From the IMG/VR virus record IMGVR_UViG_2744054425_000001, positions 1 to 51,725 of that record: a DNA stretch of 51,725 bases. One strand, written 5' to 3'. The stretch's first letter is position 1. Each line of letters begins with the position of its first letter. The translations under genes and the position numbers were made by a program. Positions 618 to 51,725 of this stretch are shown piece after piece. Source of the DNA: a virus. The notes below the pieces were generated by a model, which ran no database searches, was not told the origin of the DNA, and saw nothing but the letters and a program-made list of their open reading frames with translations.

Positions 618-788
618 ATGCATAGATTGACCCAGGTAATTGACAGGCATAAAACCGCCAATGCCACCGACCCCCAAGAATTGGAATTTATTAAAAAGAT
701 GAATAAATACAACAAAAAAAAGGATCAAGAAATTACAGAAATTTTATTGAAATACGAATTGTTGAAAATGGATTTTAACCATTCGTAA
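618..788 (+). CDS. Hypothetical small protein (56 aa)
   Basis: First ATG within track ORF 585..788 (the track start is TTG). It converges on and overlaps the repressor 3' end by 14 nt. No recognisable motif. Confidence 0.3.
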   Translation: MHRLTQVIDRHKTANATDPQELEFIKKMNKYNKKKDQEITEILLKYELLKMDFNHS

Positions 789-1209
789 TACGATCAACTT
801 TATTTTTAAGTTGTTCAAGTTCCTTTTTAATATCTTCCAAGGCAATATCTTTGGCAAAACTTTTTAATAGTTCCTTAAAAGATTCTTTTTGCAAAACCAT
901 TTCCCGGTTTTCGTGCAAATAATCCATTACGTCCAACAACGTTAAATCCGTTGGTTTTCCCGCCGGTTGTTCCCGTGCGTGGGTTTCCATAATGTGCGCG
1001 AACAATTTTTGTTTGGATTCCGGTATGGCGTGGCCGCCTTCATAATTCTGAATGGTCCTAAACGATACACCTACTTTTTCGGCCAATGTAGGTTGGGACC
1101 AACCCAATTTTTCCCTAAAAATTTTAATGTCGTAACCGCTGATTTTCAAAACTTTAAATTTTTTAACACAAAAAATGTGCTTTTTAATGCACAAAAATTG
1201 TGTGTACAT
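775..1209 (-). CDS. XRE/CI-like helix-turn-helix repressor
   Basis: The motif IKIFREKLGWSQPTLAEKVGVSFRTIQNYEGG is a classic HTH_3/XRE signature. It is transcribed divergently from the early operon. The first 20 codons overlap the operator repeats, so an alternative TTG start at 1149 is plausible. Confidence 0.85.
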   Translation of the reverse strand: MYTQFLCIKKHIFCVKKFKVLKISGYDIKIFREKLGWSQPTLAEKVGVSFRTIQNYEGGHAIPESKQKLFAHIMETHAREQPAGKPTDLTLLDVMDYLHENREMVLQKESFKELLKSFAKDIALEDIKKELEQLKNKVDRITNG

Positions 1210-2902: not shown

Positions 2903-4912
2903 ATGAAAAATAACGTTTGCATTTTAAAAATGTCCCTTAAAAACTTCAAAGGGATAAAGGATTTAGAAATAGATTTTAACCAAAACACCAACATTTACGG
3001 GGACAACGGCACCGGGAAAACTTCAATTTTCGACGCGTTCACCTGGTTATTGTTCGGCAAGGATTCCACCGGACGTTCCAATTTTGAGGTAAAGACATTG
3101 GACGCCAACAACGTGGTAATACCAAAAATAGAACATGAAGTGTGCGCGGTGTTATCCATGGGTGCCAATGATGGTACCACCCCGGAAGAATGGGAATTTA
3201 AACGCGTATTGCGGGAAAAATGGGTAAAAAAGAAGGGCAGCGAAACCGCGGAATTTACAGGCAACGAAACCCAATTTTTTTGGAACAAAGTTCCGTTGAC
3301 GTCCGCGGAATACGATAAAAAAGTTAACATGGTAATGGACGAAACCGTGTTTAAACTATTAACCAACCCGTTGGCGTTTAATGATCTTAATTGGAAGGAA
3401 CGCCGCAACATTTTGGTGTTGTTGGCCGGGGCGGTAGATAACGACGACGTTTTAAAAGCGTTGGACCATTCCCAGGAATTGACCAAACCACAGGTGGACG
3501 ACCTAATACATTTAATCAATGGCAAATTGTCGTTGGAAGAACAGCGCAAACAGACCGCCGCGCAAAAAAAACAGTACCGGGACGAATTAAAGGCCATACC
3601 CACCCGCATAGACGAAGCCAAACGCAACGTGCCACAAACATTGGATTTTGAAGCTATACAAAAGGATTTGGAAGTATGGGAAAAGGGTTTGGAAAAGTTG
3701 GACGGCCAAATTAACGACAAATCCAAGGCCATGGAAGCGGTATTGGAGCAACGCGCCGAACTGCAAAAAGAGATGTACGCCATACAATCCAAAATTGATT
3801 TGCGCGGCGATATAATAACCAAAAGAATTAAGAACGACAACCGCGTGGACACGTCCGAGGTGGACGCGTTAAAACAGGATTTGGCCAAAACGGAAAATTT
3901 GGCCGGCCAATATGCTGCAAACATTAGGGACGCCAAGGAACAAAAAGACCAATTGGAAAACCAAATGGCCGAATTGCGCACAAAATTTGAGGAATTGAAC
4001 GCGTCCCAAATTGCGTTTGATCCCAACGCGGAAAAATGCCCAACGTGCCACCGCGGGTACGATCCGCAAAAGATACAGGAAGAACGCGCCGCCGCGGAAA
4101 AAAGGTTTAACGACAACAAAAAAGCGGAATTACAAAGAATTAGGACCGCCGGACAGATCAAAAAAGCGGATTGCGAAAAGTTGACCGCCCAAATATTGGA
4201 ATGGGGACCAAAACACGATGAATTAAAAGAAAATGCCGCGGAACTACAAAAACAGATTACGGCATTAGGGAAAACCGACGCGGCGCCGGTGGACGTTCCA
4301 AAACTAATTGCGGAAACATTGGCAGCGGATCCGGAGTTGATCAAATTAAAAAAGGAAAAACAGGAATTGGAAGCCCAATTGGAGTTCGTACCCACCGTGG
4401 ACAATTCCGAGTTGGTAAACCTTAAAAAACAGACCATTGGCAATATTGATATATGCAAAACCAAATTGGCGGTAAAAACCCAAATAGACAAGGCCAACGC
4501 AAGGGTGGACGAACTATTGGCCCAGGAAAAACAATTGGCCCAGGATCTTAGCAATTTGGAACGGTCGGAATTTGCATTGGAAAAATTCATTAAGACCAAA
4601 ATCACCATGTTGGAAAACCGCATTAACCAAAAGTTTACCCATGTTAATTTCCGGTTGTTTCAAACCCAAATAAACGGTGGGGAGGTGGAAACGTGCGACA
4701 CCTTAATTAATGGCGTGCCATTTTCGGACGCCAACAACGCCGCCAAGATTAACGCCGGTTTGGACATCATAAACACATTGTGCGACCATTACGGGACCAC
4801 CGCGCCCATTTTTGTGGACAATAAAGAATCCATTACAAAATTAATTCCGGTACAATCCCAGGTGGTGGCATTGATCGTAAGCGAAAACGATAAAACATTG
4901 AGAATCCAATAA
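2903..4912 (+). CDS. SbcC/Rad50-like SMC-family ATPase with long coiled coil and CxxC hook
   Basis: Walker A motif GDNGTGKTS follows an LKNFKG strand. A ~450-aa coiled coil rich in E/K/Q/L is interrupted by CPTCHRGY. The C-terminal APIFVDNKES resembles a Walker B/D-loop. Confidence 0.8.
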   Translation: MKNNVCILKMSLKNFKGIKDLEIDFNQNTNIYGDNGTGKTSIFDAFTWLLFGKDSTGRSNFEVKTLDANNVVIPKIEHEVCAVLSMGANDGTTPEEWEFKRVLREKWVKKKGSETAEFTGNETQFFWNKVPLTSAEYDKKVNMVMDETVFKLLTNPLAFNDLNWKERRNILVLLAGAVDNDDVLKALDHSQELTKPQVDDLIHLINGKLSLEEQRKQTAAQKKQYRDELKAIPTRIDEAKRNVPQTLDFEAIQKDLEVWEKGLEKLDGQINDKSKAMEAVLEQRAELQKEMYAIQSKIDLRGDIITKRIKNDNRVDTSEVDALKQDLAKTENLAGQYAANIRDAKEQKDQLENQMAELRTKFEELNASQIAFDPNAEKCPTCHRGYDPQKIQEERAAAEKRFNDNKKAELQRIRTAGQIKKADCEKLTAQILEWGPKHDELKENAAELQKQITALGKTDAAPVDVPKLIAETLAADPELIKLKKEKQELEAQLEFVPTVDNSELVNLKKQTIGNIDICKTKLAVKTQIDKANARVDELLAQEKQLAQDLSNLERSEFALEKFIKTKITMLENRINQKFTHVNFRLFQTQINGGEVETCDTLINGVPFSDANNAAKINAGLDIINTLCDHYGTTAPIFVDNKESITKLIPVQSQVVALIVSENDKTLRIQ

Positions 4913-14997: not shown

Positions 14998-15017
14998 TCT
15001 AAAATAAAAACCGCATC

Positions 15018-15120
15018 AAATGTTAAAATTTCGTGTTATATGAAAAAAATGTGGGTTTGGGTATTGTTTTATCGAAATATACAACGTATATTTACGGTGT
15101 TGAATTAATAAAGCGTTACA
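15018..15120 (+). promoter_or_regulatory. R1: copy 1 of a ~100-bp conserved promoter/5'-UTR cassette
   Basis: Near-identical to 15904..16006 and 38650..38745. It has TTG (15064..15066), a 20-nt spacer and TATATTTA (15087..15094), matching the Bacteroidota -33/-7 consensus TTG/TAnnTTTG. A 7-bp inverted repeat AAATATA-N5-TATATTT overlaps the -7 box. Confidence 0.7.
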
Positions 15121-15122
15121 AA

Positions 15123-15314
15123 ATGACATCATCAGAAATTAACACCGAGATTAAAAAGACCAAAGCCATAATGGATGCACTTTTGGTTTGTGTAAAAGAC
15201 AAATCAATTTCCGTTCAAGATAGAAACCAATATTATGGCGAATATTTACAGGCATCAACTTATTATTTAAAGTTGAACCAGGTAAAGCCACAACACAATT
15301 TAACAATTGCATAA
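15123..15314 (+). CDS. Hypothetical small protein (63 aa) driven by R1
   Basis: First ATG after the repeat. The upstream part of track ORF 15033..15314 lies in the non-coding repeat. Confidence 0.55.
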   Translation: MTSSEINTEIKKTKAIMDALLVCVKDKSISVQDRNQYYGEYLQASTYYLKLNQVKPQHNLTIA

Positions 15315-15360
15315 ACCAACAACCGGGGGCGGGATCACCGCCACATAAAATATTTGAAAC

Positions 15361-15618: not shown

Positions 15619-15663
15619 AAACATAATCCGGGGGCGGGCAACCGTCCCCATTAAATATAAATT

Positions 15664-15894
15664 ATGCAAAGGGAAAATGTAATAATAATCCATAAGGGCG
15701 ACACGTACGAAACGTGGGGATCGTTGACGGAAATTTGCGGAGTTGTCAAAGTAGGCAATAAAATGGTTAGTACCGGACAGGGCCACCAGGAGTTTAAATA
15801 CTCTACATTGCGCGAAAAAAAATACCCGTTTACGTACAAAGGATGGAAATTTATAAAAGTTCCCCACCGTACATTGGCCAAGGATCAACAGTAA
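15664..15894 (+). CDS. Hypothetical protein (76 aa)
   Basis: Track ORF lying between hairpin H2 and repeat R2. Confidence 0.55.
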   Translation: MQRENVIIIHKGDTYETWGSLTEICGVVKVGNKMVSTGQGHQEFKYSTLREKKYPFTYKGWKFIKVPHRTLAKDQQ

Positions 15895-15903
15895 AACGGC
15901 CAA

Positions 15904-16006
15904 AAATGTTAAAATTTCGTGGTAGGCGAAAAAAATGTGGCAATGTGTTTGTTTTATCGAAACATACAACGTATATTTACGGTGTTGAATTAATAAAGCG
16001 TTACAC
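15904..16006 (+). promoter_or_regulatory. R2: copy 2 of the conserved promoter cassette
   Basis: Aligns with R1 along its whole length, with a few substitutions. It ends directly at the ATG at 16007. Confidence 0.7.
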
Positions 16007-16351
16007 ATGAAAACTACATTAAAAGAGTACAACGAAAAATCCCAGGAAAAAAGCGAATTAAGAAGATCAGCGGACAACGCCCGTTATTCCCAGGATTACA
16101 CCACCTACCACGAATTAACCGAAAAGGTAAAGGAATTGGACCAGGCGTATTTTGACAAATTGGACACCGTTTCCGTTTCCTATTGGATAGGCGGACGATC
16201 TTATTACCAAGACGTTGTTAAGATCGGTAAAGCGTATTTTTGCCACGGCCGCAAAATGACCAAGGGCAACGGGTACAGGTTTATTGAAGAAATACCCGAA
16301 ATTACCGATAAAATGGCCGCGGATATGATGGCAGATTCTTACTACTATTAA
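16007..16351 (+). CDS. Hypothetical protein (114 aa) driven by R2
   Basis: Track ORF whose ATG directly follows the repeat. Confidence 0.6.
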   Translation: MKTTLKEYNEKSQEKSELRRSADNARYSQDYTTYHELTEKVKELDQAYFDKLDTVSVSYWIGGRSYYQDVVKIGKAYFCHGRKMTKGNGYRFIEEIPEITDKMAADMMADSYYY

Positions 16352-16403
16352 AAAACACTAACAACGGGGGCGGGCAACCGTCCCCAATTAAAGATTTGAA
16401 ACC

Positions 16404-16529: not shown

Positions 16530-16609
16530 TTTTACAGTACTTCAAAGTTTTGAAAAGTCCACAGGAAAACCCCGTGGCGCATTGTTCCAATTAAAATTAC
16601 AACCAAACA

Positions 16610-18221: not shown

Positions 18222-18611
18222 ATGAAGAAAAAAGGCAAAAAATTAATTTTCATTAGTAAGATTTCCAACGACGGTTTGGCGTTGTCCCTGGTGACAAAAG
18301 ACCATGCAAAAGAAATTAAAAACGACATTTTTAAATTAACACCATTGTCGTTATCGGAACAAACATTTATTGCAAAAGATTTTCATTCATTCGTGGTAAA
18401 AATAAAGCCTTCCAAGGATAAGAAAAAACCAAAGCGGCCAAAATTCCCAAATTATGAACGGCGCGAAATATCCATGTTTTTATTTTTCCCAATAAAAGTA
18501 AAGGGTAAATGGCATTGGTTCAAAGACGCCATTTTAAAACAACGCCGATTGGGCGTTGGTGGATTATTAACCAAATGGGAAACATATAAAATTATTGATC
18601 TAATTGAATAA
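18222..18611 (+). CDS. Hypothetical protein (129 aa)
   Basis: Track ORF located between TerS and TerL. Confidence 0.5.
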   Translation: MKKKGKKLIFISKISNDGLALSLVTKDHAKEIKNDIFKLTPLSLSEQTFIAKDFHSFVVKIKPSKDKKKPKRPKFPNYERREISMFLFFPIKVKGKWHWFKDAILKQRRLGVGGLLTKWETYKIIDLIE

Positions 18612-18614
18612 CCC

Positions 18615-18890
18615 ATGAAAAAAGTAATTGTATTAGGCAGCGTTTCAATAGGAAAGGCCGCCGCCGAAAAATTGCACGCGCAAGGAATAGAAATTGTTGA
18701 GGTTTGCAAAGGACTTTCCCAAGCTGCCAAAGCCGTTAAGGATTTTAATGTGGCGTGTTCGGAAATGGTAGAAATGGCAAAAAATATTCCGGACCCGTTC
18801 GTGCCCGAACCATTGTTGATCCAGGGCCGCAAATTTGTGGACCCGGAACCACCCCGCCATTTTAACCACAAATCCAAATACCATAAATAA
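18615..18890 (+). CDS. Hypothetical protein (91 aa)
   Basis: Track ORF that ends 5 nt before the TerL ATG. Confidence 0.5.
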   Translation: MKKVIVLGSVSIGKAAAEKLHAQGIEIVEVCKGLSQAAKAVKDFNVACSEMVEMAKNIPDPFVPEPLLIQGRKFVDPEPPRHFNHKSKYHK

Positions 18891-18894
18891 CCCC

Positions 18895-20940
18895 ATGCAA
18901 ACGTCCAACGACATAATGTTGTCCAAGTATTTGGACATACACGAAAAAATTTACGACTTTAAAACGGTCAAAATTTTACCGTCCGTATGGACAGAAGAAA
19001 ACGTGCGGTTGGGTTCGGACATATCCAGGTACACCGGCCCGTTTAGGTATGACAAATCCCCGTACACCCGCGAGATTATAAACAATTTGTCACCCACGGA
19101 CCCAACGGAAACCACGGCCGTTATTAAGTGCGCACAAAGCGGATTGACCCAGGGCGTAATAATTCCCGGTATTTGCTACATAATAAGCGAAAACCCCGGC
19201 CCCATTCTGTTTATGGCAGGGGACAAAGAATTGGCGCGTAATAGCGTGCGCACGCGTTTAGATCCGGTTATTGAAAGTAGCGGCATTGGCCATTTGATCC
19301 GGCCAAACGTTATACGTAAAAAAAACCAACGTACAGGGGACACGGATTTTTCCAAAGAATTTGCCGGCGGCCAATTAATTGTGGAGGGCACAAAGAACGC
19401 GGACAAAATGCGGCAATTTTCCGTCCGGTACATTTTCGCGGACGATTGGGAAGCCGCCCCCAGGGACGACAAAAAAGAAGGATCCGTGCGTAAATTGGTG
19501 GAAGGCCGTTCCACATCCTTTGGCAACATGCGTAAATTGTTTTATATCAGTACCCCGGCAGTAAAACAAACATCCAATATCGAACCGGTTTACGAAATGG
19601 GCGACCAACGCAAATGGCATTGGAAATGTCCCCATTGTAAAAAGTACATCCCAATGGAATGGCGGGTAAAAAAGGAGGACGGAACGTACGCCGGCATAAA
19701 ATATGAATTGGACCAAAACGGATTGTTAAACGAAAAGTCCGTCCATTATGAGTGTCAATATTGTGGGGGTAAAATTTTGGAACGTGACAAATTTAATTTG
19801 AATTTGGCAGGAAAATGGATTGCCACCGCCAAACCCGTACGCCCAAACATTAGGAGTTACTATTTAAACGCGTTGATCATTCCGCCGGGGTTTACGTCGT
19901 GGGTGGACCTGGTGTACGAATGGATCGAAGCCAACCCCAAAGACGGGGTGGTGGACATTGGAAAGTTAAAAACTTTTTTAAATATCCGGTTGGGCCAAAC
20001 ATGGACAGAGCACGGCGAAACCCCCCGCGTTAATGAGTTAATGAAAAATATATGTAGTTATAACCCCGGAACCGTTCCGGATATAACGGCCGCGGAACAC
20101 GGAAACGGCGACATTATTATGTTGACATTGGCATGCGATTTAAACGGGATCATGGAAAAAAACAACCAGGACGTGCGTTTAGATTGGGAATTGGTGGCCC
20201 ATACCACCACCGGCGCGTGGTATAGCGTGGACCATGGCAGCATAGGAACGTTTAAACGGGAACGGGACAAAACCAAGTTTGAACGCGAAACCGACGGCGA
20301 CCGGGAAAAATGGACGTACAACCACGGCCACAAAAACAGCGTTTGGCCGGTGTTCGAAGAACTAATGCGGAAAAAATGGCCGTGCGAAACCCCGGACCGC
20401 CACATGGAAGTTATGTTAACCACCGTGGATACCGGGTATTTTACCAGGTTGGCCAACCAATTTATTGAAAAATTCGACGACCTAATTATTTTAGGGATCA
20501 AAGGAGCCGTGGAAACAGATTACCGCCGCGTGCAAAAGGACACCGCGCCCGTGCGGCAATCCAGGGAAAACAAAGGATTGTATATTTTGGAGGTGAACCA
20601 AATAAAGGACGAATTAAGCAGTTATATAAAATTGGTCGAAGGTTCGGACGGGTACCAACCCCCCGGTTTTATGAATTTTCCACAGCCCCAGGACGGCAAA
20701 TACAACATGGTGTCGTATTTCCAACATTACGAAGGGGAACGCCGCGTGGAAGAAACCAAAGACGGTGTGGTGGTCGGTTTCAAATGGGAAAAGAAAAACA
20801 GCCAATCGTTAAACCACTTTTGGGATGTTCGCGTGTACAACATTGCGGCCCGGTACATTTATTTGGACCTAATAGCAAGGTCCGAAAAGAACATAAACAA
20901 ATTGTCGTGGGCGGAATTGGTGGCCATGATAAGTAATTAA
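18895..20940 (+). CDS. terL: Terminase large subunit, lambda GpA family
   Basis: WTEENVRLGSDISRYTGPFRYDKSPYTREI and VIKCAQSGLTQG match the GpA N-terminal ATPase pattern. A CPHCKKY...CQYCGG zinc-finger-like element is present. The protein is 681 aa. Confidence 0.8.
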   Translation: MQTSNDIMLSKYLDIHEKIYDFKTVKILPSVWTEENVRLGSDISRYTGPFRYDKSPYTREIINNLSPTDPTETTAVIKCAQSGLTQGVIIPGICYIISENPGPILFMAGDKELARNSVRTRLDPVIESSGIGHLIRPNVIRKKNQRTGDTDFSKEFAGGQLIVEGTKNADKMRQFSVRYIFADDWEAAPRDDKKEGSVRKLVEGRSTSFGNMRKLFYISTPAVKQTSNIEPVYEMGDQRKWHWKCPHCKKYIPMEWRVKKEDGTYAGIKYELDQNGLLNEKSVHYECQYCGGKILERDKFNLNLAGKWIATAKPVRPNIRSYYLNALIIPPGFTSWVDLVYEWIEANPKDGVVDIGKLKTFLNIRLGQTWTEHGETPRVNELMKNICSYNPGTVPDITAAEHGNGDIIMLTLACDLNGIMEKNNQDVRLDWELVAHTTTGAWYSVDHGSIGTFKRERDKTKFERETDGDREKWTYNHGHKNSVWPVFEELMRKKWPCETPDRHMEVMLTTVDTGYFTRLANQFIEKFDDLIILGIKGAVETDYRRVQKDTAPVRQSRENKGLYILEVNQIKDELSSYIKLVEGSDGYQPPGFMNFPQPQDGKYNMVSYFQHYEGERRVEETKDGVVVGFKWEKKNSQSLNHFWDVRVYNIAARYIYLDLIARSEKNINKLSWAELVAMISN

Positions 20941-20951
20941 AAAACAAAAAA

Positions 20952-21293
20952 ATGTCAAAAAAAGCGGAATTAATAAAAAAAGACGTTGTACTAATAATTT
21001 TTAAGGACGATAAAATTAAAATCAGACATTTTAACGAATGTCGTTTTTTTAGAGGAACACACAGTATAATTATAGACAATTGGACTTATTATTGCAAAAA
21101 CGAAAGTTATTACGCTGCATTAAACTATTGTTTTATTATAGATAAAAACAAAAAGAAACAAGCGTTAGACGAAACATTTAATTTGCGCAAAAATAAATTC
21201 GAATCAGATTTATTAGTACTAAAAAAAAATATCGAAAGCATTAACCAAAAAATTGAATTGGAAAATAAATTAAAACATAATTTGTTTTTGTAA
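20952..21293 (+). CDS. AT-rich moron gene (113 aa), unknown function
   Basis: GC content is visibly far lower than its neighbours (about 20-25% by hand count of two lines). It is followed by a terminator. The protein is rich in K/N/I/F. Confidence 0.6.
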   Translation: MSKKAELIKKDVVLIIFKDDKIKIRHFNECRFFRGTHSIIIDNWTYYCKNESYYAALNYCFIIDKNKKKQALDETFNLRKNKFESDLLVLKKNIESINQKIELENKLKHNLFL

Positions 21294-21330
21294 GGCACAA
21301 AACAAACCCAAACCCCCCAGGATCAACAAG

Positions 21331-21392
21331 CCACCCAACCGGGTGGTTTTTTTGTACTTCAAATTTTTGGAGTTTACAATACTTAGTTTTGG
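21331..21392 (+). promoter_or_regulatory. DR-A copy 1: 62-bp terminator plus putative late promoter, identical to 39071..39132
   Basis: Hairpin CCACCC-AACC-GGGTGG plus a T7 run, followed by TTG...TAGTTTTG, which matches the TAnnTTTG -7 consensus. All 62 bases are identical between the two copies. Confidence 0.75.
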
Positions 21393-21433: not shown

Positions 21434-22750
21434 ATGATCAATTGGGGACTATTGCGCGAGGTTGTAGGCGCAACGCCATGGTGCGTGGATTTCCACACAT
21501 TGCCGGCGTTGCTTAGTGTTATGGATAACATCCAAAACGGCGTACAATTTACCGTGGCGGACAACGGCGAAAAGTACAACACCCCATTATTAATGCGGGT
21601 GGGTAACGATACCCGCATAATAAACAGGCCATACGGCAACGGTTGGGAACCCGGACAGCTAGAGAACAACGAAAAATTTAAAGCCGTTGGTATTATCAAC
21701 ATAAACGGACCCATTACCACGTCCGGCGGCGCGTCAAGTAGGGGAATGGACCACGTTTCCAGCATAATGCGAAAAATGGCCGCGGACGAACGCGTGGTGT
21801 CTTTTATAGTGTTGGCAGATTCCGGCGGGGGCGCATCCGCAGCCGTGGAAATTATGACCAATACCATTAACCAGGTCAAAGAAACAAAACCCGTGTATGG
21901 CCTGGTAAAAAAAGGAGGTATGGCGGCATCCGCCATGTACGGCATTTTGTCCGCGTGCAATGAAATTTACGCGGAAGATGAAATGGCCATTGTGGGATCG
22001 TGCGGAACCATGATCCAATTTAATGGCCGCGAAGCCAACACCACGGATCCGGACGGCGTAAAGCACATCAGAATGTATGCCACAAAATCCACCATGAAAA
22101 ACAAGGGTTTTGAAGATGCTTTAAATAAGGACAATTACACGGTTATTTTAAACGAATTGTTGAACCCTATTAACGAACGGTTTTTGGATCATTTATTGGC
22201 CAACCGGCCACAATTAAAGGGTACGGATTTTGACAACGGCAACACCAAGTTTGCCAAAGATTCCGTGGGAACATACGTTGACGGTATAAAATCGTTTTCG
22301 GAAGTGTTCCAAATGGCCGCAAAAGCGGGTAAGGATAAACCAGGATTTAAGGCCGGAGGGCCAACATCAAATAATAATTTAATAAAAGGTAACATGGACA
22401 TTAACGAATTAAAACAAAACCATCCGGCCACGTACAACAGCATTTTTAACGCGGGCGTATCGGCCGAGCGTGACCGCGCAGGATCTTGGTTGGCACATGC
22501 CAACACGGATATGGAAACCGTTATTAACGGAATTAAAAGTGGCAACGAAATTTCCGCCACCGTACGGGAAGAATTGTTGGTAAAAGCCAACGCCAACGCA
22601 CAATTGGGAAAATTGGAAAGCGACAGCGCGGGAGCCATTGCCACCAAGGAAGAAAAAACAAAAGTTGATCAATTGGACAACGACGACGAAGTGGAAGCAT
22701 TTTACAAAGATGTGGACAGTAAGTTGGGGTTGAACGCAAAAACAGTTTAA
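21434..22750 (+). CDS. S49 (SppA/ClpP-like) prohead protease, lambda gpC-like
   Basis: SGGGASAAVEIMTNTI and KKGGMAASAMYGILSACNEIYAEDEMAIVGSCGTM match the S49 serine-protease core. Confidence 0.75.
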   Translation: MINWGLLREVVGATPWCVDFHTLPALLSVMDNIQNGVQFTVADNGEKYNTPLLMRVGNDTRIINRPYGNGWEPGQLENNEKFKAVGIININGPITTSGGASSRGMDHVSSIMRKMAADERVVSFIVLADSGGGASAAVEIMTNTINQVKETKPVYGLVKKGGMAASAMYGILSACNEIYAEDEMAIVGSCGTMIQFNGREANTTDPDGVKHIRMYATKSTMKNKGFEDALNKDNYTVILNELLNPINERFLDHLLANRPQLKGTDFDNGNTKFAKDSVGTYVDGIKSFSEVFQMAAKAGKDKPGFKAGGPTSNNNLIKGNMDINELKQNHPATYNSIFNAGVSAERDRAGSWLAHANTDMETVINGIKSGNEISATVREELLVKANANAQLGKLESDSAGAIATKEEKTKVDQLDNDDEVEAFYKDVDSKLGLNAKTV

Positions 22751-22753
22751 GCC

Positions 22754-23197
22754 ATGGGAGTAGAGCAAACAGGCGCAACGCGCAACCAAAGTAATTTAAA
22801 GATTTCGCACAAACATATTTTTTTGTTCGACAATAAATATGCGGAATCCATTTTTAACAACAACACCGGCGACACGTACACGTTAAAACCCGGTTTGGTT
22901 GTAATTAGAAACACGGCCGCCACCACAAAGGTAATTCCGGCGGTATCGGGGGCAACATTGATTAACATTGTTGGGGTGGTAAGCACAAACGACGACATTG
23001 AAATGTCCGACGGATCGGACGCAAACATTACCATTTGCGACGGTGGGGTAATTAACAAAGATTTGTTGATACTGCCATCCGGCGTAACATTGGACACCTT
23101 AATTGCCACGCACGGCATTACGGTTGGGGACAAATTGCGGTCCCTAGGTTTCGACCTAGAAGGCGCGGTGGAAAACACAAAATTTGATAACGAATAA
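22754..23197 (+). CDS. Putative head decoration protein (lambda gpD-like position)
   Basis: 147 aa, located between the protease and the E-type capsid gene. Assignment rests mainly on synteny. Confidence 0.45.
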   Translation: MGVEQTGATRNQSNLKISHKHIFLFDNKYAESIFNNNTGDTYTLKPGLVVIRNTAATTKVIPAVSGATLINIVGVVSTNDDIEMSDGSDANITICDGGVINKDLLILPSGVTLDTLIATHGITVGDKLRSLGFDLEGAVENTKFDNE

Positions 23198-23202
23198 TAG
23201 CC

Positions 23203-24276
23203 ATGATAACATTAAATCAGCACAAAGCGCATTTAACAAAAAGGATCATTGCCAGCTTTTCAGACGATAGCGCGCCAAAACTTGGTTTGTCGTCCTGGTT
23301 TCCTTCATTGACCACATCCGCAAAAATGGTAAGTATCGAGGTAGAGCGCAACCGCCAATTGGTAGCGTCCCAGGTACAAAGGAACACCGGCGGAAACATT
23401 AACACGTTCAGCAATAGCAACGAAAAAATGTACACCCCGCCGTATTACGAGGAAATTTTTGATTTCACCGCGGCGCAGTCTTATGACGTAACTTTTGGTG
23501 CGGGCAACAACCCCAACAAAAACCAGGTTATGGATATGATAGGGGAAACGTCCAGGAGGTTAAAGACCCTAAAGGAAAAAATACAACGCGCCATAGAGTT
23601 GCAACGCGCCCAGGCATTGCAAACGGGTATTGTAATAATGAAGAACGGCGACCATATCGACTTTAAAAGAAAGGCCGCATCCATTGTGGCCAAGACAGGG
23701 ACCGCCGTTTGGGCTAACGCCGCCGGTAAACCTTTGGACGATGTGGCCGCGGCCATAAAATTTATCCGTCAAGAGGGTAAAAGCGCGTTAAGGCAATTCG
23801 ATCTTATTTTGGGCGAAGCTGCATTTTCGGATTTTATGAACAATGCCCAGGTAAAGGCCACCGCAGAATTTAGGCGCATTTCCATTTTGGAAATTGGCAC
23901 CACCCGTTTTGATAATACCACCGGGTTAAATTTCCACGGGCAGTTTTCCACCAAAAACGGATTGGTGAACATTTGGACGTACGACGATTTTTACGAAAAC
24001 GCCAACGGTACGTTTTCGGAATACATAGAAACCAAAAACGCATTGGTTTTGCCACGCGATTTTGTGGGCCGTTCATCATTTGCCGGCGTTCCTGCCATTA
24101 AAAGGGATAAGAGCAACGCGGAATATCCGGAGTTTATCCAACAAATGGAAGCGGAATTTTACATTAACAACTATGTGGACCCAAGAAAAAAGGCCCATTG
24201 GTTCGAAATTTGTTCCGCCCCATTGGCGTTGCCGGTCAGCGTTGACAGGGTAGTGACAATAAAAACAGCGGAATAA
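23203..24276 (+). CDS. Major capsid protein, lambda gpE family
   Basis: 357 aa with gpE-like synteny and a strong terminator directly downstream. The N-terminal region SWFPSLTTSAKMVSIEVERNRQLVA resembles the Phage_cap_E family. Confidence 0.7.
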   Translation: MITLNQHKAHLTKRIIASFSDDSAPKLGLSSWFPSLTTSAKMVSIEVERNRQLVASQVQRNTGGNINTFSNSNEKMYTPPYYEEIFDFTAAQSYDVTFGAGNNPNKNQVMDMIGETSRRLKTLKEKIQRAIELQRAQALQTGIVIMKNGDHIDFKRKAASIVAKTGTAVWANAAGKPLDDVAAAIKFIRQEGKSALRQFDLILGEAAFSDFMNNAQVKATAEFRRISILEIGTTRFDNTTGLNFHGQFSTKNGLVNIWTYDDFYENANGTFSEYIETKNALVLPRDFVGRSSFAGVPAIKRDKSNAEYPEFIQQMEAEFYINNYVDPRKKAHWFEICSAPLALPVSVDRVVTIKTAE

Positions 24277-24298
24277 GGCCGCAATTATAAAAATCAAA

Positions 24299-24325
24299 GC
24301 CACCCATTACGGTGGGTGGCTTTTT
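24299..24325 (+). terminator. Rho-independent terminator after the capsid gene
   Basis: GCCACCCA (24299..24306) pairs with TGGGTGGC (24313..24320), followed by TTTTT. Confidence 0.85.
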
Positions 24326-24330
24326 AAAAC

Positions 24331-24403
24331 CGTGGGGTAGGGCAGTTGGTAGCCCGCCAGGCTCATAACCTAGAGGTCGCCGGTTCGAATCCGGCCCCCG
24401 CAA
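24331..24403 (+). tRNA. Phage-encoded tRNA-Met (anticodon CAT), no encoded CCA
   Basis: Hand-folded cloverleaf. Acceptor CGTGGGG/CCCCGCA has a C1-A72 mismatch. D-stem GGGC/GCCC. Anticodon arm CCAGG-CTCATAA-CCTAG has one mismatch. Variable loop AGGTC. T-arm GCCGG-TTCGAAT-CCGGC. Confidence 0.85.
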
Positions 24404-24430
24404 CAAATATTAATCACAAATAATTTTATT

Positions 24431-25773: not shown

Positions 25774-27294
25774 ATGACAGCAATAAGCACCGCCGTGGGA
25801 ACGGAACGCAAGTCCAGGACGTCAGGGTATAAGATCAAAAAAGGTTTTTTTGATAACGACCCGGCAAATTTACCGCAAATAATTGCAGTTTTTGGAGAAG
25901 CCAACACGGCAAACCAAAGCGGTTTAAGTACCGTTAAAAAGGAAATTACGTCCGCAAAGGAAGCCGCGGAATTGTACGGGTACGGATCACCTTTGCACCA
26001 AATGTTTAGGATTTTGCGCCCGGTGTCCGGTGACGGTGTGGGCGGTATCCCCACAATTGCATTTCCCCAGGCAGAAGCGGGCGGGGCAACCGCCACCGCA
26101 CACGAATGGACGGTAACAGGAACGGCCACCGCCAACGCAACGCATACAATTGTAATTGCCGGCCGTGGTTCCTTAGATTTTCTTAAATATTCGTTTGCCA
26201 TAGTAAAAGGGGACACGGCCACGGTAATTGCGGGAAAGATAAAAGACGCCATAAACGGGGTGTTGGGCAGTCCGGTAACGGCGGCCAATGTTGCCGGGGT
26301 GTTGACCATTACCACAAAATGGAAAGGAGTTACAAGTGCCAATTTAAAATCCACTATTGATTTGGGTACCAACGCCGCAGGCGTATCGTATAGCAAAACA
26401 GCGACCACGGACGGCGCCGGGGCCGCGGATTTGTCCGGAGCATTGGCGCAAATGGGCGACGTGTGGTACACCGTTGTGGTTAATCCTTATGGCGCGGCAG
26501 CGTTCGACGATTTGGAAGCCTTTAACGGCAGACCGGACGCGGACAACCCCACCGGAAGGTACGAAGGATCCGTTTTTAAACCGTTCATGGCCTTTTTTGG
26601 CAGCGTGTTGGACGATAAGGACGACATTGTGGCCATCACCAACGATTCCGCCAGGATCGAGGAAGTAACCAACGTATTGTGTCCCGCGCCAAAATCGGAG
26701 GGGTTCCCATGGGAAGCCGCCGCAAACGCCGCGCGTTTATTTGCCCGCACCATGCAGGACACCCCGCATTTGGACATTAACAACATGGCATATCCGGACA
26801 TGCCGGTGCCATCCAACGGAATAATTGGTGACATGGCAGATTATAACAACCGCGATTTGCTGGTAAAAAACGGCGCGTCCACGGTAGTGTTGGAAAATGA
26901 CAGTTATAAGGTTCAAGATTTTGTAACAACATACCATCCGGAAGGGGAAAACCCGTTGCAATACGCATACGCGCGCAACCTCAATTTGGATTGGAACGTG
27001 TCAGACAATTACAGGACATTGGAAAAACTTTTTGTAAAAGACCATGTTTTGATCCGTGACGGCCAAGTTACAGACGTTGCCAAGGCCATAAAACCAATAG
27101 AATGGAAAGGAATTGTGCAGGATTTATTTGTGGATTTGGCGGTAAAAGCGTTGATAAACGACCCGGATTTTTCCAAAGAAAGTTTGCGCGTGGAAATAGA
27201 CGGCACCAACCCGGACCGTTTCAATACATTTTTCCGGTATAAAAGAACAGGAATTGCACGCATAGAATCCACGGACGTGGAAGCGGGTTTTTAA
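25774..27294 (+). CDS. Contractile tail sheath protein
   Basis: 506 aa, followed by a tube-sized gene, a frameshifted chaperone and a tape measure gene. Confidence 0.7.
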   Translation: MTAISTAVGTERKSRTSGYKIKKGFFDNDPANLPQIIAVFGEANTANQSGLSTVKKEITSAKEAAELYGYGSPLHQMFRILRPVSGDGVGGIPTIAFPQAEAGGATATAHEWTVTGTATANATHTIVIAGRGSLDFLKYSFAIVKGDTATVIAGKIKDAINGVLGSPVTAANVAGVLTITTKWKGVTSANLKSTIDLGTNAAGVSYSKTATTDGAGAADLSGALAQMGDVWYTVVVNPYGAAAFDDLEAFNGRPDADNPTGRYEGSVFKPFMAFFGSVLDDKDDIVAITNDSARIEEVTNVLCPAPKSEGFPWEAAANAARLFARTMQDTPHLDINNMAYPDMPVPSNGIIGDMADYNNRDLLVKNGASTVVLENDSYKVQDFVTTYHPEGENPLQYAYARNLNLDWNVSDNYRTLEKLFVKDHVLIRDGQVTDVAKAIKPIEWKGIVQDLFVDLAVKALINDPDFSKESLRVEIDGTNPDRFNTFFRYKRTGIARIESTDVEAGF

Positions 27295-28352: not shown

Positions 28353-30215
28353 ATGGGGGCAACGATCAAAATTCCCGCGGAGTTTAGGGCAATAGACAAA
28401 TTTAGTGGCGTAATTAAGGCAATGACACGGGGCGTTCGTAATTTTTCCAACAACGGAATTGCGGCCGTCCGCCGTTTTGATATGCGCGTACAACGTACAT
28501 TTTCCAAGTTAAACCGCATGGTGGGCAATTTTGGTGTGTTAATGGGCGGTGCGGCCATTGTGGGGGCCATTGGCGGGGCCATAAGCATTACCGCAGATTA
28601 TGAACAGGCCAACGCCAATTTGGCGGCGGTAATGGGCAAGACCGTGGAACAGACCCAGGCATTACAGGCAGATTCCAAATTGTTGGGATCAATTACCAAA
28701 TTTACGTCCGCAGAAGTTACCGGGCTGCAAACGGAATACGCCAAATTGGGGTTTGTAGAGGACGAAATTTTAAAAGTTACCAAAGGCACATTGGCGTTGG
28801 CCGCGGCCACCGGCACGGATTTGGACCAGGCCGCCGCCCAGGTCGGCGCCACCATACGTGCGTTTGGTTATGACGCCAAAGAAGCGGCCAGGGTTTCGGA
28901 CGCGTTCGCGGCGTCCACGTCAAAATCCGCATTGAATATGGAATTTTTAAACACCGCCATGTCTATTGTGGCCCCGGTGGCGTCTAAATTTGGGTTTGAG
29001 GTGGAAGGCGTTTTGGCATTGTTGGGCAATTTGGCGGATAGTGGTTTTGATGCAAGTTCCGCGGCCACGGCAACCCGTAACATACTTTTAAATTTAGCGG
29101 ACGCCAACGGAAAATTGGCCAAATCATTGGGAAAACCGGTCAAGGATCTACCTAGTTTAGTGGCCGGCCTTAAAAAATTGGACGCCCAGGGGGTTAATTT
29201 GGCCAAAATGTTAGAATTAACGGACGTTAGGAGCGTTGCGGCATTTTCTACATTCGTAAAGGGTACGGATAAGATTTTGGATTTAAACGACGCGTTAAAC
29301 GTGGCGGGCGGATCGGCCCAGGCTATGGCGGACAAACAATTGGCCACCTTAACAGGTAAGACCACCATTTTACGGTCCGCGTACGAAGGTTTTATATTAT
29401 CGCTAGACAACGGAAAAGGGCCATACTCACAGACCATAAAAAACGTGGTGGATACCGCCACGGAAATGTTGTCCATGGCGTCCGGGACTGCCAAGGCGGC
29501 CACGGAAATGTCGGAAGGGGAATTAAAAATAAGGGCATACGCGGAAGCGGGCATAAAAGCGGTAAAAGTTATTGGAGGTTTAACCGCCGCGTATTTGGCG
29601 TTTAAAGTGGGGCTAATGGCGTACAACGTAGCCATGGGCGTGTACACGGTGTCCACACAGATTGCCACAGCGGCCACCACCGCTTTTGGGGTGGCTTTAA
29701 ATTTAGGGTTATGGCCAATTTTGGCCATCATTGCCGGTATTGCTGCCATTATAGCCATATTTTACTATTGGGACGAAATAACCGCGTGGTTTGGTAAGCA
29801 ATGGACAACGTTTACCGGTATGTTGGGCGCGGTATGGGATAACCTGGTGAAATGGTTTAAAAATTTCAGCTTTAAAGACTTTTTTAAGAGCATAGGCCAA
29901 AGCCTAATGAAGTATTTGTTATGGCCAATGAAACAATTATTGACACTATTGTCCAAGCTGCCCGGAAAAGTGGGCAAAATGGCGTCCATGGGGTTGGATA
30001 AGATCGGCGAAATGTCCGGCGAATTGGATGTGAACGACAGCCGCAAACCATTGGATGGTCCGGAGGTGAACAACGCCAATATTACCAAAGAAACGGTAAC
30101 GCGCAATAGTTTGGCCATAGACATTAACGACCCAGGAAACAACGTAAAAAACACAAGATCGGAAGGGCCGTTGGCCATACCGGTTAAAGTGTCCAACACA
30201 CAAGGAAATAATTAA
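28353..30215 (+). CDS. Tail tape measure protein
   Basis: 620 aa, Ala/Gly/Leu-rich and helical. A TM-like segment GLWPILAIIAGIAAIIAIFYYW is present. AAVMGKTVEQTQALQADSKLLGSITKFTSAEV resembles the TP901-type TMP core. Confidence 0.85.
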   Translation: MGATIKIPAEFRAIDKFSGVIKAMTRGVRNFSNNGIAAVRRFDMRVQRTFSKLNRMVGNFGVLMGGAAIVGAIGGAISITADYEQANANLAAVMGKTVEQTQALQADSKLLGSITKFTSAEVTGLQTEYAKLGFVEDEILKVTKGTLALAAATGTDLDQAAAQVGATIRAFGYDAKEAARVSDAFAASTSKSALNMEFLNTAMSIVAPVASKFGFEVEGVLALLGNLADSGFDASSAATATRNILLNLADANGKLAKSLGKPVKDLPSLVAGLKKLDAQGVNLAKMLELTDVRSVAAFSTFVKGTDKILDLNDALNVAGGSAQAMADKQLATLTGKTTILRSAYEGFILSLDNGKGPYSQTIKNVVDTATEMLSMASGTAKAATEMSEGELKIRAYAEAGIKAVKVIGGLTAAYLAFKVGLMAYNVAMGVYTVSTQIATAATTAFGVALNLGLWPILAIIAGIAAIIAIFYYWDEITAWFGKQWTTFTGMLGAVWDNLVKWFKNFSFKDFFKSIGQSLMKYLLWPMKQLLTLLSKLPGKVGKMASMGLDKIGEMSGELDVNDSRKPLDGPEVNNANITKETVTRNSLAIDINDPGNNVKNTRSEGPLAIPVKVSNTQGNN

Positions 30216-38166: not shown

Positions 38167-38651
38167 TCACTTTTAGTATTGTTAAAGATTCCATTTTGGA
38201 CGCCGGCAAGCGCATTTTAAAAATTGTAGAGTTTGGGCCTAAGACCACCAAGGAGTGCGCGCCGTTCGGGGAAGATTCCGCCCCGTTAAAAGATATGGTG
38301 GCCATACATGCCAGGACCACGGAAAGCGGGGAAAGCGTCGTAATTGGGTACATAAACAAAGACCAATTGGCCAACCCAGGGGAAAAACGCATGTACAGTT
38401 TAAAACCGGACGGATCATTGAGTTTTGATATTTATTTGAAGAACGACGGCACCGTGGAAATTGGCGGAAACGGGCACCACCTGGTTAAGTACGCCCCATT
38501 AAATACGGCGTTGACAGACCAGGACACCGCCATTAACACGGAATTGGGCAAAATTGCATTGGCCATTGGTTCGTTGGGCGGTACGTACACCCCGGCAACC
38601 GTGGCCACGGACATTTCAGCAAGCCGGGCGGAAAACGTAAAAACGGGTTAA
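38163..38651 (+). CDS. Baseplate spike/assembly protein V (Mu gp45-like)
   Basis: Contains FGEDSAPLKDMVAIHARTTESGESVVIGYINKDQLANPGEKRMYS...DGTVEIGGNG. Confidence 0.55.
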   Translation: MITFSIVKDSILDAGKRILKIVEFGPKTTKECAPFGEDSAPLKDMVAIHARTTESGESVVIGYINKDQLANPGEKRMYSLKPDGSLSFDIYLKNDGTVEIGGNGHHLVKYAPLNTALTDQDTAINTELGKIALAIGSLGGTYTPATVATDISASRAENVKTG

Positions 38652-38745
38652 ATGTTAAAATTTCATGTTTAGCGAAAAAAATGTGCATTGGGTGTTGTTT
38701 TACTGAAATATACAACGTATATTTACGGTGTTGAATTAATAAAAA
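38650..38745 (+). promoter_or_regulatory. R3: copy 3 of the conserved promoter cassette, inside the structural region
   Basis: Aligns with R1 and R2, including the TTG, the AAATATA-CAACG-TATATTT palindrome and GTGTTGAATTAATAAA. Confidence 0.7.
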
Positions 38746-38753
38746 CAATCACC

Positions 38754-39026
38754 ATGAAAACATTATCTAAAAGAATCGAAGAATTTGTAAAAAAAGCCGG
38801 GTTAGTTGATCTAGTAAAAGAGGAAGCCACAAAATTAAATGGTTTGTACGAAGCCATGGACCAGGCATACGACGCGGACGACATGGAAAAATGGGAAACC
38901 CTATCCAATGAAATGGACGCTTTAAACAAGGTTATTAAAAACAAAATAATTAAGGCGTGCCCAATTAAATTGGAAGATGTAGTTTTAAAAAATTTGGTTG
39001 CTTATTCCATAGACGGCAACATTTAA
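38754..39026 (+). CDS. Hypothetical acidic helical protein (90 aa) driven by R3
   Basis: First ATG after the repeat. It is followed by two hairpins, the second with a T-run. Confidence 0.55.
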   Translation: MKTLSKRIEEFVKKAGLVDLVKEEATKLNGLYEAMDQAYDADDMEKWETLSNEMDALNKVIKNKIIKACPIKLEDVVLKNLVAYSIDGNI

Positions 39027-39070
39027 AAAACCCGCCGATTTTTTATAAGTCGGCAAAGTTTCCCCACCAA

Positions 39071-39132
39071 CCACCCAACCGGGTGGTTTTTTTGTACTTC
39101 AAATTTTTGGAGTTTACAATACTTAGTTTTGG
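39071..39132 (+). promoter_or_regulatory. DR-A copy 2: 62-bp terminator plus putative late promoter
   Basis: Identical to 21331..21392. Confidence 0.75.
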
Positions 39133-39152: not shown

Positions 39153-39449
39153 ATGTCCGTATCCATTACCATTTACATTGAGAGCAAACCCACGTTATTG
39201 GCCAAAATACAGGCCATAGAAGCGTTGATCGATTCCATGTTTTTAAGAATGGCAGAGGTTGCCGGGGGTTTGGGTTCCACCGTGGACGAATATTCCATGG
39301 ACGATGGACAAATGAAGGTACGCACAAGTTACAGAAACGTGGACGACGTTTCCCAGGGCATTAAAGCGTTGGAAGCCTTAAAACAACAGTATATAAACCG
39401 GTACAACGGGCGCGTGGTCAATTTGCGCGACGCCCGCGGATTAAGATAA
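39153..39449 (+). CDS. gpW-like head-tail joining protein
   Basis: DGQMKVRTSYRNVDDVSQGIKALEALKQQ parallels lambda gpW [25 protein letters not shown]. It lies directly upstream of a lambda-type portal gene. Confidence 0.5.
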   Translation: MSVSITIYIESKPTLLAKIQAIEALIDSMFLRMAEVAGGLGSTVDEYSMDDGQMKVRTSYRNVDDVSQGIKALEALKQQYINRYNGRVVNLRDARGLR

Positions 39450-39451
39450 GC

Positions 39452-41059
39452 ATGAAGATATTAGGATTTAACATTGGCGGTAAAAAAACGAACGTAAACG
39501 CGGAAAGTTCCACATACGACCATTACAAGGGCGGTAATTGGGTGCCTATAAAAAATGGCAAATTTGATGGCGAAAAAACCCCCGGCGAATTGGGCGACGT
39601 GTACCGGTTGGAAACCGACACCGAGCGTTTAAGGTTGCGCGCGTACGAAGCCAATTTAACCAACGACGTGGTGCGCATGATCACCGGTAAATTTTTTAAA
39701 TGGATCATTGGCAGCGGTCTAAAATTACAGGCGGAACCAAGCGAAAAAGCATTGGCCACGGAGGGCATAAAAGCAGATTTTGAAACGTTCCGCGAACATG
39801 TGGAAGCAAGATATGATATATACGCCAATAGTAACGTGGCGGATTATTCCGGAATGGCAAACCTACATAAAAAAGCGGCGGAAGCGTTCGCGGGTTCCTT
39901 TTTTGGGGACATGTTGGTGGTTTTGCGAGTAGAAAACGGAATACCAAATGTCCAGGTTATAGACGGGGAACACGTGCGTCAACCGTGGATGGATGAAAAA
40001 TGGGAGAAAGAAGCCAAGGCCCGCGGCAACATTATACGTAACGGTATAGAAATGGACCCCCGCGGAAAACACGTTGCGTTTTATGTTTTAAAGGAAAGCA
40101 CGGACAGCATATTGGGAGAATTTACAAGGGTTCCGGCATACGGTAAGAACAGCAACCGCAAAATGGCGTGGATGTTGTACACGGCAAAACACCGGGCCGG
40201 ATCGGATAGGGGCATGCCCGTAATTGCCCCGGTGTTGGAAAAGGTGGCCAAATTGGACAGGTACACGGAAGCCACCGTGGGCACCGCGGAAGAACGCGCC
40301 AAAATTGTGTTTGCCATAGAACATTCCAAGGACAGCACCGGCGAAAACCCGTTGTTGGGCAAAATGAAGGCCGCCGCCGGTATGGGCAAACCGGAAGCCA
40401 CGGAAACGGAAGGGTACGCATTAGGGGAAAAGACCGCCCAAAACATTGCCGTTTCCACGGGCAAAGAAACGTATAACATGCCCATTGGGGCCAAATTGTC
40501 CGCCCTATATTCCCAGGGTGAAATACAATACGAGCCGTTTTGGCGCGCCGTGTTCAATTCCATTTGTGCGGCCGTGGACATACCCCCGGAAGTTGCGTTG
40601 CAAATGTACAACAGCAATTACAGCGCGTCCAGGGCGGCAATTAACGGTTGGCAATATATAATTAATGTGTACCGTAAAAACTTTTGCACGGACTTTTATT
40701 TGCCCATTTACCAATTGTGGTTGGAAACCGAAATATTACGCGGAAGCATTAAGGCACCCGGATATTTAAAACCTGGTGCAAGTTACTTAATAATGGAATC
40801 TTACGGCAAAGCGCGTTTTATGGGCCAAAACTTGCCACATATAGACCCGTTAAAAGAGGTAAAAGCATTTGTGGAAATGTTGGACGCCGGATTGATTACG
40901 CATGAAATGGCCACAGAATTGTTGAATATGGGCGATTGGGGCGAAAACTTCAACAAATTGGTTAAGGAATTGGAATTGAGAAAGGCCAAGGAGCCAAAAC
41001 AGGATCCGGCAAAGGAAGAACAACCAAAAGACAATAATAATGGCGCAAATAAGAATTAA
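39452..41059 (+). CDS. Portal protein, lambda gpB family
   Basis: 535 aa. NGIEMDPRGKHVAFYV and the overall pattern are typical of Phage_portal_2. It partners the GpA-type terminase. Confidence 0.75.
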   Translation: MKILGFNIGGKKTNVNAESSTYDHYKGGNWVPIKNGKFDGEKTPGELGDVYRLETDTERLRLRAYEANLTNDVVRMITGKFFKWIIGSGLKLQAEPSEKALATEGIKADFETFREHVEARYDIYANSNVADYSGMANLHKKAAEAFAGSFFGDMLVVLRVENGIPNVQVIDGEHVRQPWMDEKWEKEAKARGNIIRNGIEMDPRGKHVAFYVLKESTDSILGEFTRVPAYGKNSNRKMAWMLYTAKHRAGSDRGMPVIAPVLEKVAKLDRYTEATVGTAEERAKIVFAIEHSKDSTGENPLLGKMKAAAGMGKPEATETEGYALGEKTAQNIAVSTGKETYNMPIGAKLSALYSQGEIQYEPFWRAVFNSICAAVDIPPEVALQMYNSNYSASRAAINGWQYIINVYRKNFCTDFYLPIYQLWLETEILRGSIKAPGYLKPGASYLIMESYGKARFMGQNLPHIDPLKEVKAFVEMLDAGLITHEMATELLNMGDWGENFNKLVKELELRKAKEPKQDPAKEEQPKDNNNGANKN

Positions 41060-51639: not shown

Positions 51640-51725
51640 TTAAAAAACTCTTTAAAGCCTAATAAATAGGGGGTTTTCGTTGTAGCGAGAGGGGGGCACG
51701 ATCCCCCGACCTCCGGGTTATGAAT
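51631..51725. repeat. Right copy of the 95-bp direct terminal repeat (att core or circular overlap)
   Basis: Identical to 1..95. The tRNA(CAT) 3'-half reads on the minus strand, so the 5' half would lie beyond the window end if this is an integrated prophage. Confidence 0.85.

Follow-up and report, generated by a model that had tools for sequence, protein, structure and literature searches.

The two copies and the genes around them

The window, by which we mean the whole stretch of viral DNA analysed here (51,725 nt; GC content 43%), has overlapping ends (positions 1-95 equal 51631-51725) and so closes into a circle of 51,630 bp. A nucleotide search of 25 kb of the window against GenBank phages returned no match. 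An integrase gene and an HTH_3 repressor-like gene are its only convincing minus-strand genes, and the phage is therefore temperate. Two copies of a 62-bp repeat lie among the following features.

775-1209, minus strand: HTH_3 repressor-like gene
18895-20940, plus strand: large terminase TerL, GpA type (phrog_15, 1e-152; PF05876 and PF20454)
20952-21293, plus strand: orphan 113-aa ORF between TerL and copy 1, with no family and no homologue in any of 163 related loci
21331-21392, plus strand: putative late cassette, copy 1 (P site), made up of hairpin, T7 run, element, spacer and -7 box; predicted transcription start site (TSS) ~21396
21434-22750, plus strand: S49 head protease (phrog_53 / PF01343)
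22754-23197, plus strand: decoration protein (phrog_5204)
23203-24276, plus strand: E-type major capsid protein (PF03864)
39071-39132, plus strand: putative late cassette at the W site (copy 2), matching copy 1 at every position; predicted TSS ~39136
39153-39449, plus strand: 98-aa ORF in the gpW position (phrog_5196, unknown function), directly upstream of the portal gene in all relatives
39452-41059, plus strand: portal, lambda family (phrog_21, 3e-66; PF05136, 5e-41)
50362-51639, minus strand: integrase

The first-pass annotation of this DNA had placed copy 1 before protease, decoration protein and E-type capsid genes, and copy 2 before a gpW-like and a lambda-type portal gene. Profile searches agree for all three genes behind copy 1 and back the portal behind copy 2 (PF05136, phrog_21); they likewise identified 18895-20940 as a GpA terminase and 39452-41059 as a lambda-family portal, overturning neither call, and the confirmed gene positions bear out the claim that W and portal lie ~18 kb from TerL. 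The window thus holds a lambda-type head set (GpA terminase, lambda-family portal, S49 protease and E capsid) in the order A-(ORF113)-C-D-E-tail-baseplate-(moron)-W-B, and not in the contiguous order A-W-B-C-D-E. Protease, decoration protein and capsid open a first operon, assigned as late, that runs via the tail and baseplate genes to 38651; the operon behind copy 2 (~11 kb) comprises the W-like ORF, portal, fibre-like and virion proteins, and an endolysin. The W-like 98-aa ORF (39153-39449) found no gpW match in Pfam or PDB profile searches. Its single-sequence AF2 model, a helix-hairpin-helix of low confidence (pLDDT 60), gave no significant Foldseek match. The gpW reading draws on gene position and this model.

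Anatomy of the repeat and other sites in the window

On re-comparison, positions 21331-21392 and 39071-39132 of the plus strand (offset +17740) are the same at 62/62 positions, as had been reported, and the match stretches 5 nt further left to 67 nt with 2 mismatches (21326-21392 / 39066-39132). A 26-mer from the repeat, searched with up to 3 mismatches, matched solely the two copies in the window (0.00 expected), and on the plus strand the box TAGTTTTG occurs in the 51.7 kb at the two copies only, both of them intergenic. The match count against expectation and the uniqueness of TAGTTTTG together exclude a chance origin of the repeat. Its parts are as follows.

21331-21346, plus strand: copy 1 hairpin, CCACCC-AACC-GGGTGG
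21347-21353, plus strand: copy 1 T7 run
21354-21372, plus strand: copy 1 lineage-specific element GTACTTCAAATTTTTGGAG, which includes the near-dyad TTCAAA-TT-TTTGGA
21358-21371, plus strand: copy 1 near-dyad TTCAAATTTTTGGA
21373-21383, plus strand: copy 1 spacer, 11 nt
21384-21391, plus strand: copy 1 -7 box TAGTTTTG, followed by G
39071-39086, plus strand: copy 2 hairpin
39087-39093, plus strand: copy 2 T7 run
39094-39112, plus strand: copy 2 element
39124-39131, plus strand: copy 2 box

The hairpin has a stem of 6-9 bp, a 4-nt loop and the T7 run, as an intrinsic terminator requires. It folds with -14.2 kcal/mol (z = -2.65; 0/200 shuffles fold as well), and a terminator scan calls it at both copies. 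An Rfam search found no known RNA family in the repeat, a tRNA-Met being the only hit, and a sigma-70 scan of the repeat gave nothing at either copy. The box TAGTTTTG fits TAnnTTTG, the -7 consensus of the Bacteroidota sigma-A factor (PMC2483708, PMC7366714, PMC9723704). Terminator scan, folding and a Bacteroidota-type box thus agree with the earlier description of a terminator hairpin and T-run followed by a promoter, both of them predicted elements.

Two details of that description change. Transcription had been expected to start ~7 nt past the box; because the box occupies -12 to -5 in F. psychrophilum (PMC9723704), we expect ~5 nt and predict starts at ~21396 and ~39136. The identical block stops at about -4 relative to these predicted starts, and the repeat is therefore predicted to be non-transcribed DNA. 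A TTG had also been read as a promoter element, but it is off the canonical -33 spacing: counting upstream from the box, a TTTG first ends at 14 nt (its G at ~-27) and next at 29 nt, not at the canonical ~20 nt. A -33 motif is not universal among flavobacteria (PMC7366714). The window's other promoter family, the ~105-nt repeats described below, does show TTG-N20-TATATTTA. The space upstream of the TAGTTTTG box is taken up by the element GTACTTCAAATTTTTGGAG, whose dyad is imperfect (5/6).

Related motifs occur elsewhere in the window.

16537-16554, plus strand: third, partial site GTACTTCAAAGTTTTG, before the resolvase-like gene, ORF97, TerS and TerL
24296-24325, plus strand: third terminator AAAGCCACCC-ATTACGGT-GGGTGGCTTTTT, with a CCACCC/GGGTGG stem, right after the capsid gene and bidirectional-looking
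24331-24404: tRNA-Met (CAT; Rfam), after the third terminator

The dyad of the partial site is perfect (TTCAAA-GT-TTTGAA, 16541-16554) and has no separate TAGTTTTG box. Searches with motifs of the element type gave 3 matches against 0.02 expected and 4 against 0.11 expected, and hairpins of the form CCACCC..GGGTGG number 3 in the window against 0.07 expected. No promoter lies behind the third terminator, and none before the head-tail and tail genes. Read-through is therefore needed there, and the terminators may be leaky or overridden, which suits an antiterminator as much as an activator.

The ~105-nt repeat family (15007-15112, 15893-15997 and 38639-38743; 73-87% identity) has a TTG-N20-TATATTTA promoter overlapped by a palindrome, ATATAC-AAC-GTATAT, of operator-like look. 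A small orphan ORF begins shortly after each copy (15123-15314, 16007-16351 and 38754-39026). A GC-rich hairpin, CGGGGGCGGGCAACCGTCCCC, is repeated at 15324-15350, 15629-15655 and 16365-16391, after three consecutive small ORFs, and together with the ~105-nt promoter repeats it forms a hyperplastic stretch of orphan genes resembling the promoter early stem-loops (PeSLs) of T4-type phages. Between the TerS-like gene and TerL, 18222-18890 holds two small ORFs of unknown function (129 and 91 aa). The named phage FCV-1 likewise has two small ORFs between its TerS-like gene and TerL, with no detectable similarity to those of the window.

Cassettes and gene order in related phages

All seven relatives that could be read at both sites (7/7) carry a repeated promoter-like element before the protease gene (P) and before W. 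Local-alignment scores within genomes were 62, 25.5, 33.5, 45 and 34.5 in five genomes, against a mean of 9.9 and a maximum of 18.5 between genomes; two genomes of a sister subgroup scored 42.5 and 28 within genomes, with a different element. Four relatives of type B or C have a third cassette inside the tail genes (T site), each after a terminator, whose stem in L006 and L095 is CCACCC/GGGTGG, as in the window. Sorted by upstream element, the promoters fall into six types that track phylogeny.

Type A: window only
Type B: contig_4802
Type C: SRR232, L094, L095
Type D: L007/L088, L087
Type E: L028
Type F: L089, L098, L009, L010

Types A, C and E have an element shaped as an imperfect inverted repeat with a T-run at its centre; type B is without a clear dyad. 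Neither the exact 52-mer nor a degenerate element-N14-box pattern found any match (0) in viral, metagenome and genome collections, and no closer relative sharing the type-A promoter came to light. Nine distant AT-rich relatives (L012, L014, L026, L029-L031, L036, L037 and L082) carry TAGTTTTG at scattered coding positions and show no upstream element that is evidently repeated; they stand outside the claim of paired cassettes. Within the claim, two to three cassettes per genome (before the protease, in the tail genes and before W) are shared across a clade of temperate marine Flavobacteriaceae myophages.

How the cassettes vary bears on what maintains them. The upstream element of ~17-23 nt is near-invariant within a lineage and unalignable between lineages, and ~17-45 nt of promoter are near-identical between genomes that are 68-73% identical in a conserved gene. 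Among the seven type-C cassettes from three genomes, 16/17 columns of AACCGAATTTTTT[CT]GAT and the box core TAGTTTT are invariant, and the 11-nt spacer varies; the genomes themselves share 68-72% nucleotide identity in the well-conserved baseplate-J gene. The type-D promoter is identical at 44/45 positions between genomes whose baseplate-J genes share 73% identity. The T-site box of every type-C genome (3/3) has a final A (TAGTTTTA) where the P and W boxes have a G; the copies have thus not just been homogenised, and each site keeps its individuality. Purifying selection on a recognition element predicts such a pattern, which blanket gene conversion would not give. Identity across a whole cassette, spacer included, does occur (62/62 in the window, 45/45 in L007, 36/37 between T and W in L094) and points to occasional conversion or duplication of whole cassettes on top of selection; some of the likeness within genomes could also come from gene conversion by itself. 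The earlier suggestion that perfect identity implies recent duplication or gene conversion thus gains support from the identical terminator and spacer of the window, but the relatives show that selection alone can hold much of the identity.

The W copy of the window has a history that the relatives help to read. Compared with all of them, the window has an insertion just upstream of copy 2.

38639-39026, plus strand: insertion absent from all relatives, made up of a ~105-nt promoter repeat (38639-38743) and an orphan 90-aa ORF (38754-39026), the "moron"

The baseplate gene and W are accordingly 501 nt apart in the window against 50-100 nt in relatives. The W cassettes of 6/6 relatives adjoin the stop codon of the last baseplate gene and have no terminator. 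Four of the six share a GGTCATTG leader at the W site, which the window lacks. At the P site, the leader of the window is similar to that of L095. The W copy of the window thus looks secondary, having apparently arrived alongside the orphan moron gene. On the simplest reading, a terminator-bearing, P-site-like cassette overwrote the W cassette, or served as its template, when the moron was inserted, a direction of copying that we infer from these comparisons. Such overwriting would explain why the identity reaches 62/62 and includes terminator and spacer, and the replacement cassette would restore an insulated late start for W and portal.

The order TerL-protease...baseplate-W-portal is common to the window and at least 10 related phage and prophage genomes, with portal identities to the window of 50-65%. 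They are one MAG contig assigned to Flavobacteriaceae, one Logan contig, contigs from IMG/VR and TARA, and prophages found in Flagellimonas nanhaiensis, in an uncultured Muricauda and in a MAG of Christiangramia. A single-protein portal scan of IMG/VR gave no match, where a baseplate-J alignment succeeded. Portal after baseplate is thus the order of the same clade of temperate marine Flavobacteriaceae myophages. The first-pass annotation had W and B moved, which implied a recent, repeat-linked event; an order held by at least 10 relatives this diverged is therefore an ancient clade trait and was not caused by the repeats. At one distant locus (L079) the portal gene immediately precedes that of the protease, and across the family the two late blocks occur in either order.

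The nearest named relatives are FCV-1 and FL-1 (Ficleduovirus), with amino acid identities of 47% for the portal, 62-66% for the sheath and 46-48% for TerL. The window lies in a separate clade of marine Flavobacteriaceae prophages (Muricauda/Flagellimonas/Christiangramia). FCV-1 and FL-1 carry W and portal between TerL and protease, with accessory genes on both sides, and their head module is already split at the same two joints as that of the window. They resemble the window in being colinear from protease to baseplate and in having TAnnTTTG boxes before both the W-portal and the protease block. They differ in that leader hairpins follow the boxes, whereas the window has no leader terminator, and a short shared promoter core (AATTTATATCTTTGTCA) is seen in FL-1 only. 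We dropped a simple recombination route from an FCV-like to a window-like order via the cassettes, as a block swap needs several events.

Further features of these relatives deserve mention. The box before the protease is followed by a leader hairpin and T-run in FCV-1 (L002, 11950-12075) and FL-1 (L001, 31745-31870), a pR'-tR'-like layout that suggests antitermination control. FCV-1 has a 73-nt promoter-like repeat family (3342-3414, 28819-28891 and 42698-42770; 67-93% identity). Its copies open accessory and early blocks, and their sequence bears no relation to the families of the window. FL-1 has 9-bp tandem repeats (26518-26944, ~45 units) inside or beside a small ORF. In contig_4802 (L005), a gene for an rve-family (IS-type) transposase (18353-19360) lies within the tape-measure region and splits the tape-measure gene into ORFs of 494 and 281 aa; this contig is probably a defective prophage.

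Proposed working, alternatives and known systems

We put at about 0.7 the probability that the 62-bp repeat is a terminator plus late-promoter cassette with a clade-wide layout, read by a lineage-specific late factor. The terminator would close the upstream transcription unit and the late promoter right behind it would restart transcription. Copy 1 would end the resolvase-TerS-TerL-ORF113 unit and start the protease-capsid-tail-baseplate operon; copy 2 would end the protease-to-baseplate operon together with the moron and start the operon for the W-like protein, portal, fibre and lysis. The promoter would combine the host sigma-A -7 box TAGTTTTG with the partly dyad element of ~19 nt, which, centred at ~-31, would occupy the -33 position and replace the spaced -33 TTTG. 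We infer promoter activity, late timing and the existence of the factor from this layout. The element may be the binding or loading site of a phage-encoded factor, either a -33 activator or a Q-like antiterminator, whose specificity would co-evolve with all late promoters of the genome. A bolder version, which we offer tentatively and hold to be clearly less probable, is an undescribed late switch of Bacteroidota phages: a small, fast-evolving phage protein would read the ~17-23-nt element at the sigma-A -33 position in a MotA-like or Q-like manner, and types A-F would co-diversify as immunity or Q/qut specificities do in lambdoid phages.

Candidates for such a factor were sought among the small ORFs. 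A search for Ogr-like zinc fingers (CxxC...CxxxxC) in those of the window, L005 and L006 found none, and Pfam and PHROGs searches with the small ORFs near TerS gave nothing convincing as a late factor. The conserved 97-aa ORF upstream of TerS has a weak HTH_26 match (E = 0.02) and an unusable AF2 model (pLDDT 53). It has two database homologues only, and the one from Arenibacter is without a type-A element nearby. That homologue (74% identity) and a TerS-like one (63%) lie at 5230-11098 of L163 (Arenibacter sp. F26102, JALKBC010000025), with genes for an integrase, an HTH_17 protein and a protein of 518 aa only ~3.4 kb away, and the contig ends soon after; the region may be a small satellite-like element with its own TerS pair.

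Could the repeat be a plain recent duplication or gene conversion of a constitutive sigma-A promoter and its terminator, with no phage factor and with homogenisation behind the similarity in relatives? The spacer-inclusive identities in the window, L007 and L094 fit this view, and the identity in the window spans the terminator, which promoter recognition does not constrain. We nevertheless consider it unlikely, because the spacers of c4802, SRR232 and L095 have diverged between copies and the upstream element has not, the T-site box keeps its site-specific A in three genomes, the element is kept between genomes far beyond coding DNA, and the -33 spacing is non-canonical. About as much doubt attaches to the idea that the element is a loading site for a Q-like antiterminator and not an activator site, with modified RNA polymerase passing internal terminators that stop only unmodified (early or lysogenic) transcription. 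It would account for a strong terminator after the capsid gene that has no promoter behind it and yet 14 kb of tail genes to follow, and for the hairpin and T-run that FCV-1 and FL-1 have downstream of the TAnnTTTG box and ahead of the start codon of the protease. Lineage-specific sites embedded in promoters are typical of the Q/qut pairs of lambdoid phages. However, neither box of the window has a promoter-proximal terminator downstream, the small ORFs scanned included no Q-family match, and processive antitermination would make multiple promoters less necessary.

Slightly less probable again is that the cassettes are chiefly substrates for recombination, like the PeSLs of T4, and at module borders mediate the gain, loss and reshuffling of modules, including a historical swap of the W-portal and protease-tail blocks. 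Both window copies adjoin orphan ORFs absent from all relatives, accessory genes vary among relatives at exactly these joints, both orders of the late blocks are found in the family, and PeSLs act in this way in T4-type phages (PMC2839356, PMC4122927). Against this, a crossover between the direct copies would cut out 17.7 kb containing essential head and tail genes, and a clade whose divergence is saturated has retained the order throughout; a recombination role is in any case compatible with promoter function and no replacement for it. Of the rearrangements foreseen by the first-pass annotation, deletion between the repeats is possible (as is duplication), but inversion is not, the repeats having the wrong orientation for it. 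An assembly artefact in the repeat or the gene order is scarcely credible, even though the window, closed by an end overlap of 95 nt, is a contig of metagenome style. Both junctions are syntenic in independent genomes, among them the isolate prophage of Flagellimonas nanhaiensis SM1704 (L088), and the alternative graph path would yield two circles, one of them without all head and tail genes. Two direct repeats permit only one single-circle order, so assembly ambiguity is no explanation for it.

If the repeat is a terminator plus late-promoter cassette, as we favour, it offers an entry into a field that is to our knowledge essentially uncharted, the control of late genes in Bacteroidota phages, whose host promoter grammar (-7/-33) differs from the E. 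coli paradigm. The cassettes give a concrete cis-element that comes in natural "specificity types" among related prophages (Muricauda, Flagellimonas, Christiangramia and others) and could be of use for finding the late regulator, for testing the co-evolution of promoter and factor, and for deriving phage-inducible parts for marine flavobacteria.

Among known systems, the middle promoters of T4 combine a MotA box at -30 with a sigma-70 -10 box, so that the host -10 is kept and the -35 replaced. By analogy with these and with lambdoid Q, the cassette would keep the host -10/-7 and give the -35/-33 position to the site of a phage factor; it differs in that we found no MotA/AsiA or Q homologue, and the mechanism is put forward from the layout. 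The late promoters PP, PO, PV and PF of P2/186 depend on Ogr/B, with a dyad upstream element bound by the phage activator (PMC3931495). P2 resembles the window in having several late operons, each with the same promoter (2 full and 1 partial in the window, 2-3 in relatives), and in placing the portal in a late operon apart from the scaffold and capsid genes (PMC3931495). The window cassette nevertheless lacks TGT-N12-ACA, no Ogr-like zinc-finger ORF is present in the window, L005 or L006, and the element is centred at ~-31 where that of P2 is at ~-55. The promoter grammar is moreover that of Bacteroidota (-7/-33) and the head genes are lambda-type (GpA, portal_2, S49, E). PeSLs of T4-type phages are multi-copy units of ~50-70 bp that join a terminator stem-loop to a promoter at the borders of variable ORFs, and they have been proposed as drivers of modular shuffling (PMC2839356, PMC4122927). 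The cassette likewise unites a stem-loop terminator and a promoter in a short conserved repeat. PeSLs, however, are early sigma-70-like promoters present in many copies in hyperplastic regions of lytic T4-type phages, whereas the group of the window has 2-3 copies heading core late structural operons in a temperate lambda/P2-like myophage.

With the defining motifs and proteins of both families absent, the cassette would work like P2 late promoters and PeSLs and is a member of neither. We conclude that the window most likely adds a new case of repeated late-promoter cassettes, from a phage group that has received little study, which is a more general and less dramatic outcome than the rearrangement originally proposed. 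The set of promoter types bears an appealing mark of diversification. The displaced portal is an old, stable operon arrangement, comparable to the separate portal operon of P2, and not the product of a recent repeat-mediated rearrangement.
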